Of a stretch of 6,795 nucleotides of DNA, positions 1,490 to 6,463 are shown piece after piece; the stretch's first letter is position 1, and each line of letters begins with the position of its first letter. The notes under the pieces were generated by a model that was not told where the DNA came from, ran no database searches, and was given only the letters and a program-made list of their open reading frames with translations. The position numbers and the translations under genes were made by a program. The stretch is from NCBI RefSeq assembly GCF_053078305.1, contig NZ_CP166876.1, one strand, 5' to 3'. The stretch is from a plasmid.

Positions 1490-1545
1490 ATCACGAAGTG
1501 CGCACTTATACAATCTCCACTTCGTTTCGATTGTGTGCGCCCTGC
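1490..1545 (+). other. Candidate origin of transfer (oriT) with MOBQ-type nick region
   Basis: It lies in the intergenic region between the divergent mobC-like and mobA genes. It contains a perfect 12-bp palindrome 'aagtgcgcactt' (1496-1507), an inverted repeat 'acgaagtg' (1493-1500) / 'cacttcg' (1518-1524), and 'gtgcgccct' (1535-1543), which matches the RSF1010/R1162 nick region (TAAGTGCG/CCCT). The inferred nick is between 1539 and 1540. Confidence 0.5.
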
Positions 1546-1584
1546 GGGGCTGAAAGAAAACGGCAAAAAGGCATTACGGCAGAA

Positions 1585-3804
1585 ATGGCGATTTATCATC
1601 TCAGCATGAAAATCATTTCGCGAAAAAACGGCTACAGTGCCGTTGCTTCTGCTGCCTACCGTTCCGGCTCTGTCATACCCGATGACCGTACCGGATTAAC
1701 CCACGATTACACCCGTAAACGCGGCGTTGATGATGCGGTCATTCTCACCCCTGCGAATGCACCGTCCTGGTGTGGTGACCGTTCCGTTCTCTGGAATGCG
1801 GTCGAGAAAGCCGAACAGCGCCGGAACTCCCAGCTGGCAAGGGAGATTGAACTCGCCATTCCCCGTGAGATTTCCCGCGAGGCCGCACGGGAGACCGTTC
1901 TCGCTTTTGTCCGGGAAAACTTTGTCAGTCGGGGCATGATTGCCGATGTGGCGTTCCATCACATGGACCGGACCAATCCCCATGCGCACATCATGCTGAC
2001 CACGAGAGCTGTCGGGGAAACGGGATTCGCAGGAAAGGTCAGGGACTGGAACGACCGGGCACTCGCCGAGACGTGGCGCGCATCATGGGCTGACCATGCG
2101 AATAGAGCGCTTGCGAACGCCGGCTACCAGGAAGAGATAGACCATCGTTCATACGAGCGTCAGGGACTGGAGAAAGCGCCGGGCCTTCACCTCGGAAAGG
2201 CTGCCTGTGCGATGGAAAAACGGGGAATGGAAACAGAACGCGGTGAGCAGAACCGTCTGATTAACAGCCTTAACCTGGAAATACAGGTTTCCCGCACGCA
2301 GCTTGCTCTCAGGACGGTTCAGGAAGCGCAGCGTAAGCGGGAACTCAGCGATGCTGCACGTCGTGCAGCGGAAGCCCTTAACCTGACCATTCCCGCTGCG
2401 AATGCCTCAGCGGATACCCTGCGGGAATTCATTGCCACGCTGCCGCAGGAATGCGGGAACGCGTGGGAGATGACCCCGGAGTTCCTGGCGATGAGCGGGA
2501 AGGTGAACGACATCGAACGTGAGGGGAATGCGCTGCTGAAAGAGCAGGCCATTCTCGAAAAGGAGATGACCGGACTCAAAAAAGCACGCCCTGTCGCGTC
2601 CCTTCTGTCAGAGATTCCCCTGATGACATGGGCTGAACCGGAATACCGCAAAAGACAACTCCGTTTCTGGAAACTCGGGAAACAGATTGAATCTCTTCGC
2701 CGCACCTACAGGGCCGTGAAAGAACGGGACATTCCCGCCCGTCGTCAGGCCTTTGAAACGCAGTGGAATACGTGGATTGCGCCGGGAATGGCAGAGCTGA
2801 AAGAAAAACTGTCAGCACGGGAAGCGGAGCGGCGCAGGGAGGAAGCCGAAGCGGAAGCGCGCCGGAAGGAACAGGAGCATGAGGCGCGGCTGAAACGTCA
2901 TGATAACCACCGTCTGAGCCGTGAAACGGCATTAGTCGGGGTTATTACGGAGCTGGGGCGTGCCAGAGAGCCGGGAACGGGCAGGATAACCCGCTACATG
3001 ATGCTGAGTAACAGGGCCGGAGAATTCACGGTATGGGGTGATGAGCTGGCGCATTACCCCCGGAGTGTTCATGACCCGGTGAATGTTTATCTGTCGCCTG
3101 GCGGGGCTGTGATGGTCACGGATATACACGCAGGGCGGCCTGAATCTCATGAGACAATGGCGCGGCCTGAGCGTGTGAGAATGTATTCCGGTGCGACGGT
3201 CCGGCATGTACTGGAACAGATGCGCCAGGGGTGGCCCTCTTACGGTTTTCCGGCGCTGCCGCATCACTGGCCGGATAATTTTTATTTCAGCAACGACCGC
3301 AGGCCCGTAGCCTCTCCGCTACCGTCAGCGCACCGGGTGGATATCACCGCTGATGCGGCACCGGAACAACTCATGCCTGTTGTATTTTCGAGAGAGGGAA
3401 ACAGCAGGACGCTGAATCTGTTGTTGTGCAAAGGGCCGGAGGAAATGCTTGTCGGGTTTGTTCGCCGGGAAGGAGGGTTTTGCCCCGTTCTTGTGCTTCC
3501 GTCGCCGGATTACAGTCATCTGATGGTCAGCACCATCACGGAGAACGGGGTATGCCTGGCAGGTTACGGAGAAGCTATAAACCATGATGAGGATACTCCG
3601 TACCCACCGGAACCGCACCTGATGCAGTTCCGGCTCAAAGGCCATCATGACAGGCTTTTGGCTGCTGTCCACAAACCGGAAGAGATGCCGGATTATCTCT
3701 TCCGTCAACTCGGTTTTAATCAGACCTGGCATGAGTGGAAGCGGGACGAACAGCACAGGCAACAACAACGCCGCCCCGGGCACTTCCGGGGCATGAGTAT
3801 GTGA
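1585..3804 (+). CDS. mobA: Mobilisation relaxase, MobA/MobL family (MOBQ-like), with long C-terminal extension
   Basis: The N-terminus MAIYHLSMKIISRKNGYSAVASAAYRSG is the conserved MobA/MobL start, with a tyrosine at residue 25 (codon 1657-1659), the same position as the catalytic Tyr25 of RSF1010 MobA. A histidine-triad motif HHMDRTNPHAHIM sits around 1957-1995. The start is set at the in-frame ATG at 1585; the six-frame ORF begins at 1498 but that upstream stretch overlaps the oriT and lacks the family N-terminus. About 440 residues follow the relaxase domain. Confidence 0.88.
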   Translation: MAIYHLSMKIISRKNGYSAVASAAYRSGSVIPDDRTGLTHDYTRKRGVDDAVILTPANAPSWCGDRSVLWNAVEKAEQRRNSQLAREIELAIPREISREAARETVLAFVRENFVSRGMIADVAFHHMDRTNPHAHIMLTTRAVGETGFAGKVRDWNDRALAETWRASWADHANRALANAGYQEEIDHRSYERQGLEKAPGLHLGKAACAMEKRGMETERGEQNRLINSLNLEIQVSRTQLALRTVQEAQRKRELSDAARRAAEALNLTIPAANASADTLREFIATLPQECGNAWEMTPEFLAMSGKVNDIEREGNALLKEQAILEKEMTGLKKARPVASLLSEIPLMTWAEPEYRKRQLRFWKLGKQIESLRRTYRAVKERDIPARRQAFETQWNTWIAPGMAELKEKLSAREAERRREEAEAEARRKEQEHEARLKRHDNHRLSRETALVGVITELGRAREPGTGRITRYMMLSNRAGEFTVWGDELAHYPRSVHDPVNVYLSPGGAVMVTDIHAGRPESHETMARPERVRMYSGATVRHVLEQMRQGWPSYGFPALPHHWPDNFYFSNDRRPVASPLPSAHRVDITADAAPEQLMPVVFSREGNSRTLNLLLCKGPEEMLVGFVRREGGFCPVLVLPSPDYSHLMVSTITENGVCLAGYGEAINHDEDTPYPPEPHLMQFRLKGHHDRLLAAVHKPEEMPDYLFRQLGFNQTWHEWKRDEQHRQQQRRPGHFRGMSM

Positions 3805-3842
3805 TATCCGGGGCTGCACCTCGGACCCCGCCAACACATCAC

Positions 3843-3866
3843 GGGCCACAAAATTTTTTGTGGCCC
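3843..3866. terminator. GC-rich hairpin downstream of mobA (possible terminator)
   Basis: Palindrome 'gggccac aaaatttttt gtggccc' has a 7-bp GC-rich stem with an A/T loop, located 39 bp after the mobA stop. There is no clean T-run after the stem, so terminator function is uncertain. Confidence 0.35.
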
Positions 3867-3923
3867 GCTCTGCGTTTTCTAAGTGTTATCCCTCCTGATT
3901 TCTAAAAAATTTTCCACCTGAAC

Positions 3924-3952
3924 TTGACAGAAAAAACGATGACGGGTACTTT
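3924..3952 (+). promoter_or_regulatory. Putative colicin promoter (-35 TTGACA; -10 region uncertain)
   Basis: A perfect -35 hexamer 'ttgaca' at 3924-3929 lies upstream of the LexA boxes and about 110 bp upstream of the colicin ATG. The best -10 candidate about 17 bp downstream ('tacttt', 3947-3952) is weak, so exact promoter elements are uncertain. Confidence 0.5.
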
Positions 3953-3957
3953 TTGAT

Positions 3958-3988
3958 CTGTACATAAAACCAGTGGTTTTATGTACAG
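3958..3988 (+). promoter_or_regulatory. Overlapping dual LexA (SOS) boxes of a colicin operon
   Basis: The sequence 'ctgtacataaaaccagtggttttatgtacag' contains a first box CTGTACATAAAACCAG (3958-3973) and a second box overlapping its last base and ending in ACAG at 3988. This is the characteristic tandem overlapping SOS operator found upstream of colicin genes (CTGT-N8-ACAG type). Confidence 0.9.
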
Positions 3989-4036
3989 TATTAATCATGT
4001 AATTAATTGTTTTAACGCTTAAAAGAGGGAATTTTT

Positions 4037-5707
4037 ATGAGCGGTGGCGATGGACGCGGCCATAACACGGGCGCGCATAGCACAAGTGGTAACATTAATG
4101 GTGGCCCGACCGGGCTTGGTGTAGGTGGTGGTGCTTCTGATGGCTCCGGATGGAGTTCGGAAAATAACCCGTGGGGTGGTGGTTCCGGTAGCGGCATTCA
4201 CTGGGGTGGTGGTTCCGGTCATGGTAATGGCGGGGGGAATGGTAATTCCGGTGGTGGTTCGGGAACAGGCGGTAATCTGTCAGCAGTAGCTGCGCCAGTG
4301 GCATTTGGTTTTCCGGCACTTTCCACTCCAGGAGCTGGCGGTCTGGCGGTCAGTATTTCAGCGGGAGCATTATCGGCAGCTATTGCTGATATTATGGCTG
4401 CCCTGAAAGGACCGTTTAAATTTGGTCTTTGGGGGGTGGCTTTATATGGTGTATTGCCATCACAAATAGCGAAAGATGACCCCAATATGATGTCAAAGAT
4501 TGTGACGTCATTACCCGCAGATGATATTACTGAATCACCTGTCAGTTCATTACCTCTCGATAAGGCAACAGTAAACGTAAATGTTCGTGTTGTTGATGAT
4601 GTAAAAGACGAACGACAGAATATTTCGGTTGTTTCAGGTGTTCCGATGAGTGTTCCGGTGGTTGATGCAAAACCTACCGAACGTCCAGGTGTTTTTACGG
4701 CATCAATTCCAGGTGCACCTGTTCTGAATATTTCAGTTAATAACAGTACGCCAGCAGTACAGACATTAAGCCCAGGTGTTACAAATAATACTGATAAGGA
4801 TGTTCGCCCGGCAGGATTTACTCAGGGGGGTAATACCAGGGATGCAGTTATTCGATTCCCGAAGGACAGCGGTCATAATGCCGTATATGTTTCAGTGAGT
4901 GATGTTCTTAGCCCTGACCAGGTAAAACAACGTCAGGATGAAGAAAATCGCCGTCAGCAGGAATGGGATGCTACGCATCCGGTTGAAGCGGCTGAGCGAA
5001 ATTATGAACGCGCGCGTGCAGAGCTGAATCAGGCAAATGAAGATGTTGCCAGAAATCAGGAGCGACAGGCTAAAGCTGTTCAGGTTTATAATTCGCGTAA
5101 AAGCGAACTTGATGCAGCGAATAAAACTCTTGCTGATGCAATAGCTGAAATAAAACAATTTGAACGATTTGCACATGACCCAATGGCTGGCGGTCACAGA
5201 ATGTGGCAAATGGCCGGGCTTAAAGCTCAGCGGGCGCAGACGGATGTAAATAATAAGCAGGCTGCATTTGATGCTGCTGCAAAAGAGAAGGCAGATGCTG
5301 ATGCTGCATTAAGTACTGCGATGGAAAGCAGGAAGAAGAAAGAGGATAATAAAAGAGATGCTGAAGGCAAACTAAATGATGAGTTAGCAAAAAATAAAGG
5401 AAAGATACCAGGTCTAAAAATAGATCAGAAAATTAGGGGACAAATGCCAGAAAGAGGATGGACAGAGGATGATATCAAAAATACCGTATCTAACGGTGCA
5501 ACTGGTACATCTTTTGATAAGCGTAGTCCGAAGAAAACACCTCCAGACTATTTAGGTCGAAATGATCCAGCAACAGTGTATGGTTCTCCTGGTAAATATG
5601 TTGTTGTCAATGATCGTACTGGTGAGGTTACTCAGATTAGTGATAAGACAGATCCGGGTTGGGTGGACGATTCGAGAATTCAATGGGGAAATAAAAATGA
5701 CCAATAA
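4037..5707 (+). CDS. cea: E-group colicin (BtuB/Tol-dependent); C-terminal cytotoxic domain most consistent with E5-type anticodon tRNase
   Basis: 556-aa ORF with an AGAGGG ribosome-binding site upstream. The glycine-rich N-terminal translocation domain carries the TolB box DGSGW at residues 35-39 (nt 4139-4153), as in colicins E2/E3/E9. The central region is the long coiled-coil receptor-binding domain typical of E colicins. The C-terminal ~105 residues (KIPGLKIDQKIRGQMPERGW...WGNKNDQ) have no HNH motif and no histidine, which argues against the E2/E7/E8/E9 DNases; I do not recognise it as the E3 rRNase either, and it fits my recollection of the histidine-free E5 tRNase domain. It is preceded by the SOS operator and followed by immunity and lysis genes. 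Confidence 0.93.
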   Translation: MSGGDGRGHNTGAHSTSGNINGGPTGLGVGGGASDGSGWSSENNPWGGGSGSGIHWGGGSGHGNGGGNGNSGGGSGTGGNLSAVAAPVAFGFPALSTPGAGGLAVSISAGALSAAIADIMAALKGPFKFGLWGVALYGVLPSQIAKDDPNMMSKIVTSLPADDITESPVSSLPLDKATVNVNVRVVDDVKDERQNISVVSGVPMSVPVVDAKPTERPGVFTASIPGAPVLNISVNNSTPAVQTLSPGVTNNTDKDVRPAGFTQGGNTRDAVIRFPKDSGHNAVYVSVSDVLSPDQVKQRQDEENRRQQEWDATHPVEAAERNYERARAELNQANEDVARNQERQAKAVQVYNSRKSELDAANKTLADAIAEIKQFERFAHDPMAGGHRMWQMAGLKAQRAQTDVNNKQAAFDAAAKEKADADAALSTAMESRKKKEDNKRDAEGKLNDELAKNKGKIPGLKIDQKIRGQMPERGWTEDDIKNTVSNGATGTSFDKRSPKKTPPDYLGRNDPATVYGSPGKYVVVNDRTGEVTQISDKTDPGWVDDSRIQWGNKNDQ

Positions 5708-6026
5708 ATTATTTGAACATACGGTGTTATATGATAGTGGTGATGCCTTTTTTGAATTAAAAGGAAATGCTTCTATGAAGTTATCACCAAAAGCTGCAAT
5801 AGAAGTTTGTAATGAAGCAGCGAAAAAAGGCTTATGGATTTTGGGCATTGATGGTGGGCATTGGCTGAATCCTGGATTCAGGATAGATAGTTCAGCATCA
5901 TGGACATATGATATGCCGGAGGAATACAAATCAAAAATCCCTGAAAATAATAGATTGGCTATTGAAAATATTAAAGATGATATTGAGAATGGATACACTG
6001 CTTTCATTATCACGTTAAAGATGTAA
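5697..6026 (+). CDS. Colicin immunity protein (cognate inhibitor of the C-terminal nuclease domain)
   Basis: 109-aa ORF (MTNKLFEHTVLYDSGDAFFELKGN...) whose ATG at 5697 overlaps the colicin stop codon (5705-5707), the typical translationally coupled position of nuclease-colicin immunity genes. The six-frame ORF begins at 5562, but that extension lies wholly inside the colicin reading frame and is rejected. The gene is AT-rich like the cytotoxic domain. Confidence 0.85.
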   Translation: MTNKLFEHTVLYDSGDAFFELKGNASMKLSPKAAIEVCNEAAKKGLWILGIDGGHWLNPGFRIDSSASWTYDMPEEYKSKIPENNRLAIENIKDDIENGYTAFIITLKM

Positions 6027-6123
6027 ATAGTGTTATAGAATTTTATGTTTCATGGATGATTTCAACCTTTGGATTTCAGGTTTTTATGGATGAATGCCTG
6101 AGTCCATATATACAAGGAACAGT

Positions 6124-6267
6124 ATGAAAAAAATAACATGGATTATTTTATTGCTTCTTGCAGCCATTATTCTTGCTGCATGTCAGGCAAACTATATCCG
6201 CGATGTTCAGGGCGGGACTGTATCCCCGTCATCCTCAGCTGAACTGACCGGATTAGCAACGCAGTAA
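6124..6267 (+). CDS. Colicin lysis / release lipoprotein (bacteriocin release protein)
   Basis: Translation by hand gives the 47-aa protein [47 protein letters not shown], with a lipoprotein signal peptide and lipobox LAAC. It is nearly identical to the E-group colicin lysis proteins as I recall them. It is absent from the ORF track because it is short. A ribosome-binding site 'aaggaa' lies upstream. Confidence 0.9.
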
Positions 6268-6294
6268 CCCGAAATCCTCTTTGACAAGAACAAA

Positions 6295-6327
6295 GCGTGT
6301 CAGGCTGATTCTGACGCGCTTTTTTTT
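6295..6327 (+). terminator. Rho-independent terminator of the colicin operon
   Basis: A 9-bp stem 'gcgtgtcag' (6295-6303) pairs with 'ctgacgcgc' (6311-6319), with one G-U pair and a 7-nt loop, and is followed by a run of 8 T (6320-6327). It lies 28 bp after the lysis gene stop. Confidence 0.8.
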
Positions 6328-6463
6328 GAAGTGTCACAAAAATTCCATGTGGGAGATGGGATCTAAAATCCCCGTGCAGAACTTTCCATCCAGGGGGAGA
6401 AAACTTGTCGTTTTGAGCCGTTCGGTGTTCAGAACGCACGAAACCGATCGTGCATCGCTTTCG

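Follow-up and report, generated by a model that had tools for sequence, protein, structure and literature searches.

The segment at positions 3924–3988 of the analysed DNA was identified, with high confidence, as an SOS-controlled promoter with its operator, belonging to a colicin E5 operon (genes for colicin, immunity and lysis) that is carried by a plasmid of the ColE2/E5 type. The window, that is, the whole stretch of 6795 bp that was analysed, represents a complete small colicin plasmid of this type. It is 99.2% identical over its full length, with a rotation of 1060 bp, to the E. coli O111:H- plasmid pO111-110512_4 (NZ_AP019765.1), which is also 6795 bp long. An earlier inspection of the letters alone (hereafter, the sequence-only reading) had described a TTGACA −35 hexamer followed by two overlapping LexA boxes, and both were found to be present in this segment. 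The same reading had regarded the element as diagnostic for the operon but not novel, and rightly so, as the results presented here support a textbook colicin-type tandem SOS operator, which is already known and ordinary. The value of the assignment lies in annotation: it shows where the colicin E5 operon begins, and it predicts that the toxin would be released from this plasmid upon DNA damage, including that caused by SOS-inducing antibiotics.

Based on Pfam, a gene for a ColE2-type replication initiator occupies positions 1–915 of the plasmid, and a MobQ relaxase gene is found at 1498–3804, with its stop at 3804; both are on the strand that also carries the colicin operon. The colicin E5 gene (4037–5707, plus strand) encodes a tRNase toxin of 556 aa and was recognised from its open reading frame, PDB matches and the Pfam domains Cloacin and Colicin_E5. 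The PDB search revealed that the N-terminal two-thirds of this protein, comprising the N-terminal and receptor domains, resemble the structures of colicins E3 and E9, and that the last 115 residues match the tRNase domain of colicin E5 (PDB 3ao9 and 2dfx; E-value, about 1e-73). The gene for the colicin E5 immunity protein, ImmE5 (5697/5775–6026, plus strand), was identified by PDB and Pfam (ImmE5) searches and from the annotation of the near-identical plasmid, and its product matches PDB entries 2fhz_A and 2dfx_I ('Colicin-E5 immunity protein') with an E-value of 3e-54. Two candidate starts were noted for this gene: the annotated one at 5697, which gives a protein of 109 aa and lies 11 nt before the colicin stop, so that the two genes overlap, and another at 5775, which gives an 83-aa core. 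The longer form (106–109 aa) is the one used in the PDB entries. In E-type colicins, the immunity gene has a constitutive promoter as well, and control by DNA damage would thus account for only some of its expression. The third gene of the operon (6124–6267, plus strand) encodes a colicin release (lysis) lipoprotein of 47 aa, as indicated by its annotation and a match to the Pfam family Lysis_col (E-value, 1.3e-22). It is followed by a strong operon terminator at 6292–6322 (plus strand; 6292–6330 with the T-run behind it), which was detected by the terminator scan and is visible in the sequence as a 13-bp stem and then a T-run. Thus, the colicin E5, ImmE5 and lysis genes are all found on one strand downstream of the operator, with a terminator at the end, and by analogy with ColE2 the three genes are probably co-transcribed. 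In ColE2 itself, two mRNAs are produced: the short one covers colicin and immunity, and the longer one extends to the lysis gene as well (PMC5916893).

The operator is the 31-mer ctgtacataaaaccagtggttttatgtacag (= CTGTACATAAAACCAGTGGTTTTATGTACAG), which sits at 3958–3988. It forms a perfect 15+1+15 palindrome, the arms of which (3958–3972 and 3974–3988) are 100% complementary and flank a central G at 3973; about 6e-6 palindromes of this kind are expected by chance per window. The sequence-only reading had called the 31-bp element nearly palindromic, and while the palindrome is confirmed, the word nearly is to be dropped. Two 16-bp SOS boxes make up the element. Box 1, the promoter-proximal one (CTGTACATAAAACCAG; 3958–3973, or 3956–3975 as a 20-mer; plus strand), is an exact match to CTGT-N9-CAG, and box 2, which reads CTGTACATAAAACCAC on the minus strand (3973–3988, or 3971–3990 as a 20-mer), has one mismatch to the same pattern. 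The boxes are outward-facing mirror images of each other, with base 3973 common to both and the centres 15 bp apart. In each of them the outer half-site is consensus (CTGTAC), and the inner half-site is degenerate (CCAG/CCAC). When compared with the single-box dyad CTGT-N8-ACAG, one half of each box is CTGT/ACAG, and the other is CCAG in box 1 and GTGG in box 2; the former is common among real LexA sites, and the latter retains only the central TG. Of the features that characterise a colicin-type tandem operator, those of sequence and gene content were found here, namely boxes that overlap by 1 base, their placement between a sigma-70 −10 hexamer and a colicin gene, homology to experimentally studied operators, and a colicin-immunity-lysis operon that ends in a terminator.

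The −35 hexamer of the promoter, TTGACA (3924–3929, plus strand), is evident by direct reading as a perfect consensus, and it is invariant in nine out of nine aligned bacteriocin promoters. A generic consensus promoter scan of the window did not call the colicin promoter at 3924–3952, because its weak −10 hexamer, TACTTT (3947–3952, plus strand), has in common with TATAAT only three of six positions, namely the two at its beginning (T and A) and the T at its end. The −10 hexamer was therefore assigned by its 17-bp spacing from the −35 and by conservation, and this assignment agrees with the LexA sites of the colicin E8 gene, cea8, which are placed just downstream of the −10 (PMC4482635). Five base pairs (TTGAT) separate the −10 from the operator, which thus begins 6 bp past the −10, and the distance from the operator end to the ATG of the colicin E5 gene is 48 bp. 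Judged by promoter geometry, transcription is predicted to start at about 3959–3960 (plus strand), 7–8 nt past the −10 and within the CTG of box 1. The boxes had previously been located downstream of the −35, which is correct but imprecise, since they start 6 bp past the −10 and cover the predicted +1. The operator is followed by an AT-rich 5′ leader (3989–4036, plus strand) with a Shine-Dalgarno sequence, AAGAGGG, at 4023–4029. The motif TTGTTTT at 4007–4013 of this leader is kept in all nine aligned bacteriocin promoters, while the adjoining bases differ. The G–C content of the leader is 31–32% and that of the promoter region is 31–39%, compared with 54–65% in the flanks; the low G–C content of the promoter region would fit binding of the AsnC nucleoprotein type.

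Scoring against a LexA position weight matrix, which the sequence-only reading had proposed as a check, clearly singled out the two boxes. The matrix used was a symmetrised log-odds matrix for which 28 chromosomal E. coli sites, after Lewis et al. 1994 and Fernandez de Henestrosa et al. 2000, served as the training set; colicin sites were left out of it in order to avoid circularity. The set does not stem from a curated file; some assurance about it is provided by three of its genes, recA, lexA and umuDC, the heterology indices of which match those in a published table (PMC2994835). The 20-mers of box 1 and box 2 scored 15.29 and 13.71 bits, respectively, and were the top two sites of the window on both strands, with the third-best site reaching 6.79 bits. 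For random 20-mers of the window's composition, the corresponding probabilities per position are 1.8e-6 (box 1) and 5.5e-6 (box 2), and about 1e-7 LexA pairs at the fixed 15-bp offset are expected by chance, or about 3e-6 with a background of 31% G–C. Both boxes fall within the range of the training sites (12.55–27.0 bits; median, 19.5), albeit at its weak end, as box 1 outscores only two of the 28 training sites and box 2 only one. Such weak-end scores are in agreement with the high heterology indices published for the boxes of colicin E7 (12.44 and 12.98), as compared with 4.31 for recA and 2.77 for umuDC (PMC2994835).

The resemblance to the tandem LexA operators of colicin promoters, which had been claimed before any comparison was made, turned out to be identity in the case of ColE2. 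Over positions 3707–4240 of the window, a single mismatch in 534 bp was found to pColE2-P9 (NZ_KY348421.1), and as it is located at 3821, outside the promoter, the promoter and operator of the colicin E2 operon (cea-cei-cel) on that plasmid are identical to those of the window. Likewise, the sequence given in the literature as the 'LexA binding site' of pMO3, a ColE2 reporter, corresponds exactly to window positions 3953–3994 (PMC5916893). Downstream, the toxin domain and immunity gene of pColE2-P9 are of the E2 type (DNase), whereas those of the window are of the E5 type (tRNase). The part that was compared, made up of the promoter and ~200 bp from the beginning of the colicin gene, is near-identical in the two plasmids, and it is in the C-terminal toxin domain and the immunity gene that they diverge. 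The comparison of E2 with E5 illustrates the swapping of toxin/immunity cassettes behind a fixed, unchanged promoter module.

A wider comparison was based on an alignment of nine bacteriocin promoters, those of colicin E5, another tRNase colicin, colicin B, cloacin DF13, pesticin, colicin 10, ColE1, colicin R and colicin S4. Although the flanks have diverged to roughly 75–80% identity (mean column identity, 76%), the −35 and the 17-bp spacing are common to all nine, the −10 reads TAnnTT throughout, and no variation is seen in 26 of the 31 columns of the operator. The genome scan also revealed a promoter of the colicin D type, in which the flanks differ considerably and the −10 is TAACTT, but the 31-mer is identical to that of the window. 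The operators of ColE1 cea and of the genes for other pore-forming colicins (K, A, N) have the −35, the frame CTGTA-N8-CAGTGG-N7-TACAG and the position relative to the −10 in common with the window. They differ from it in the arms, which are imperfect in the ColE1 type (13/15 identical, with one G.U and one A.A in RNA) but perfect in the window, and in the −10, which is TAGCTT in the ColE1 type and TACTTT here. Chromosomal SOS boxes of E. coli (recA, lexA, recN, umuDC) follow the same CTGT-N8-ACAG logic and the same repression by a LexA dimer. In chromosomal promoters with more than one box, such as those of lexA and recN, the boxes are separate. The boxes of the window, in contrast to the chromosomal ones, share a base, have one degenerate half-site each and are of weak-end strength.

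Since the predicted start lies at 3959–3960, the operator would itself be transcribed and the mRNA would begin with a hairpin of 12–13 bp. The palindrome might therefore act mainly or additionally as RNA, in the form of a 5′-terminal hairpin that stabilises the long colicin mRNA or tunes its translation, with LexA binding as one of two functions of the element, and this reading, although rather unlikely, deserves consideration. For the RNA of positions 3959–3988, a folding energy of −15.4 kcal/mol was obtained (z = −5.8), and when the whole leader is folded (−24.2 kcal/mol, z = −4.9), this hairpin is the dominant element. The operator versions of ColE1 and pesticin fold as well (−11.6 and −9.6 kcal/mol, respectively). 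Stem-loops at the 5′ terminus are known to stabilise E. coli mRNAs, according to Emory et al. 1992 as cited in PMC2896534. Furthermore, when CTG was changed to CCC in the identical ColE2 operator (positions 3958–3960 of the window, at the base of the hairpin), a change that was meant to weaken LexA binding, expression was unexpectedly lowered and delayed instead of raised (PMC5916893). The latter result indicates that the operator bases have a role besides LexA binding, for which the start site is the simplest candidate, and damage to the start site explains the effect as well as loss of a hairpin does; moreover, the start has been predicted by geometry only. Two outward-facing boxes that obey one LexA consensus give rise to a global palindrome automatically. 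For such mirror-oriented boxes, symmetric substitutions are expected from selection for LexA binding alone, and so the variants cannot discriminate in favour of an RNA role; neither the conservation nor the sole two-sided change that was observed, in L015, where T-A takes the place of A-T at operator positions 10/22, separates the two readings. Mismatches in the stem are tolerated, as seen from the A.A of the ColE1 type and from the pesticin operator, in which a C-G pair is broken. The full-text literature search yielded no paper describing a hairpin role for the colicin operator, and an Rfam scan of the whole window gave no family at threshold, the leader thus being without a described RNA element. 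If the hairpin did play a role, it would amount to a modest refinement rather than to a new kind of system, and it could explain the outcome of the CTG to CCC change.

The reading as a LexA operator, on the other hand, meets with no substantial counter-argument and is in line with what has been published on closely related promoters. In the promoter of cea8 (Kamensek et al. 2015), LexA footprints two overlapping sites, LexA1 and LexA2, just past the −10, and EMSA showed that RNA polymerase is blocked by LexA (PMC4482635). Promoter fusions of colicins E2, E5, E6, E7, E8 and D showed no expression in undamaged cells and responded to nalidixic acid only with a delay, the E5 promoter::lac fusion among them (PMC4482635). 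According to the same study, the promoters of E2, E5, E6 and E8 align closely, and cea8 is likened here to the window on the grounds of that description and not of a base comparison (PMC4482635). For the promoter of the window, LexA binding, exclusion of the polymerase, SOS induction and the effect of AsnC are accordingly taken over, as probable, from the literature on these relatives.

AsnC has been described as a co-repressor of the nuclease colicin promoters, including that of E5; it modulates E2, E5, E6 and E8, and in a delta-asnC background colicins E2, E5 and E6 are produced earlier (PMC4482635). Together with LexA, it contacts the whole 179-bp promoter fragment of cea8, the positions of the LexA sites included (PMC4482635). 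Given this coverage, and the AT-richness of the corresponding region in the window, the palindrome could be thought to be primarily a site for another regulator (AsnC, IscR or a different dimeric protein), with an incidental likeness to LexA sites. Such a reading is very improbable, as in cea8 LexA footprints exactly the two boxes and occupies the DNA jointly with AsnC rather than in its place (PMC4482635), IscR neither binds cea8 nor affects the nuclease colicins (PMC4482635), and both the CTG/CAG trinucleotides and the matrix scores point specifically to LexA. Those pore-forming colicins that have been tested, such as colicin K, differ in this respect, as their co-repressor is IscR and not AsnC (PMC4482635). 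That the palindrome is a functionless product of chance in an AT-rich intergenic region, for which nothing but the low regional G–C content speaks, can for practical purposes be dismissed in view of the chance expectations (6e-6 palindromes and 1e-7 to 3e-6 LexA-scoring pairs) and the invariance of 26 out of 31 columns between flanks that have diverged to about 75% identity. Both of these readings were thus rejected on the basis of statistics, conservation and published footprints.

Taken as a tandem SOS operator, the element suggests the following course of regulation. In undamaged cells, two LexA dimers would fill the 31-bp operator, from about +1 to +30, and keep RNA polymerase off: with the operator starting 6 bp past the −10 and extending over the start site, the polymerase would be unable to bind while LexA is in place. 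LexA binding to overlapping colicin boxes is cooperative. Each box of the window is weak alone, and tight repression would hence depend on both being occupied. A nucleoprotein complex of AsnC would coat the AT-rich promoter region, adding to the repression and delaying induction. Upon DNA damage, activated RecA would promote the self-cleavage of LexA, whereby the promoter would be freed and the operon transcribed. The expected outcome is a very low basal expression and a late induction, which would suit an operon that is fatal for the producer.

The sequence-only reading had placed the toxin, immunity and lysis genes under DNA-damage control, and in outline this holds, as the three genes are found on the same strand behind the operator. 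LexA, however, is not likely to be the sole control: apart from the contribution of AsnC, a T1 stem-loop and CsrA place an additional limit on lysis gene expression in ColE2 and ColE7 (PMC5916893, PMC2896534). Similar elements can be seen in the window. In the spacer between the immunity and lysis genes, a stem formed by GGAUUUCAGG and CCUGAGUCC is located at 6071–6105, with an apical GGA at 6088–6090, and an ACAAGGA at 6112–6118 overlaps the Shine-Dalgarno sequence of the lysis gene. The stem, together with the GGA and ACAAGGA motifs, is reminiscent of ColE7 and ColE2 with their T1 stem-loop and CsrA sites, but this T1-like stem has an ordinary folding energy (z = −1.1). Another repeat was observed upstream of the promoter. 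It is an imperfect inverted repeat with 21-nt arms (3833–3876; core, GGGCCACAAAA / TTTTGTGGCCC), located between the mobQ stop at 3804 and the colicin −35. No T-run was found at either side of it, and it may serve as an insulator, a terminator-like hairpin or a protein site.

Overlapping dual boxes were also searched for in a genome collection, using the frame CTGTA-N8-CAGTGG-N7-TACAG. The scan produced 60 matches, about 45 of which look like chance, and the real ones are too few to tell whether it is the LexA boxes or a palindrome or hairpin that has been selected for. The same dual LexA frame was observed in enterobacterial chromosomes, e.g., at positions 10146–10176 of L056 (also in L042, L019, L029, L040 and L064). 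There it is located upstream of a 62-aa ORF (MQDYFLE..., no Pfam match), which is followed by a DinI-like gene, and a phage portal gene is found ~2 kb away. The locus looks like an SOS-controlled prophage module, and we presume that the frame could belong to the promoter of a tum antirepressor gene of the 186/P2 type. AT-rich dual boxes with 15-bp phasing were found in Salinicola and a related gammaproteobacterium (L012, L032 and L045) as well as in Paucibacter/Roseateles (L011 and L033), and their occurrence in these non-enteric Proteobacteria indicates that the overlapping-box architecture is not confined to colicin plasmids. A further group of matches came from small contigs assigned to Acinetobacter idrijaensis MII (L052 and L053), Amphibacillus jilinensis (L070), Streptococcus parasanguinis (L015) and Pseudomonas sp. 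A-RE-19 (L069). These contigs carry colicin, pesticin or ColE1-type promoters that are identical or nearly identical to those of enterobacterial plasmids, and they probably represent assembly contamination.
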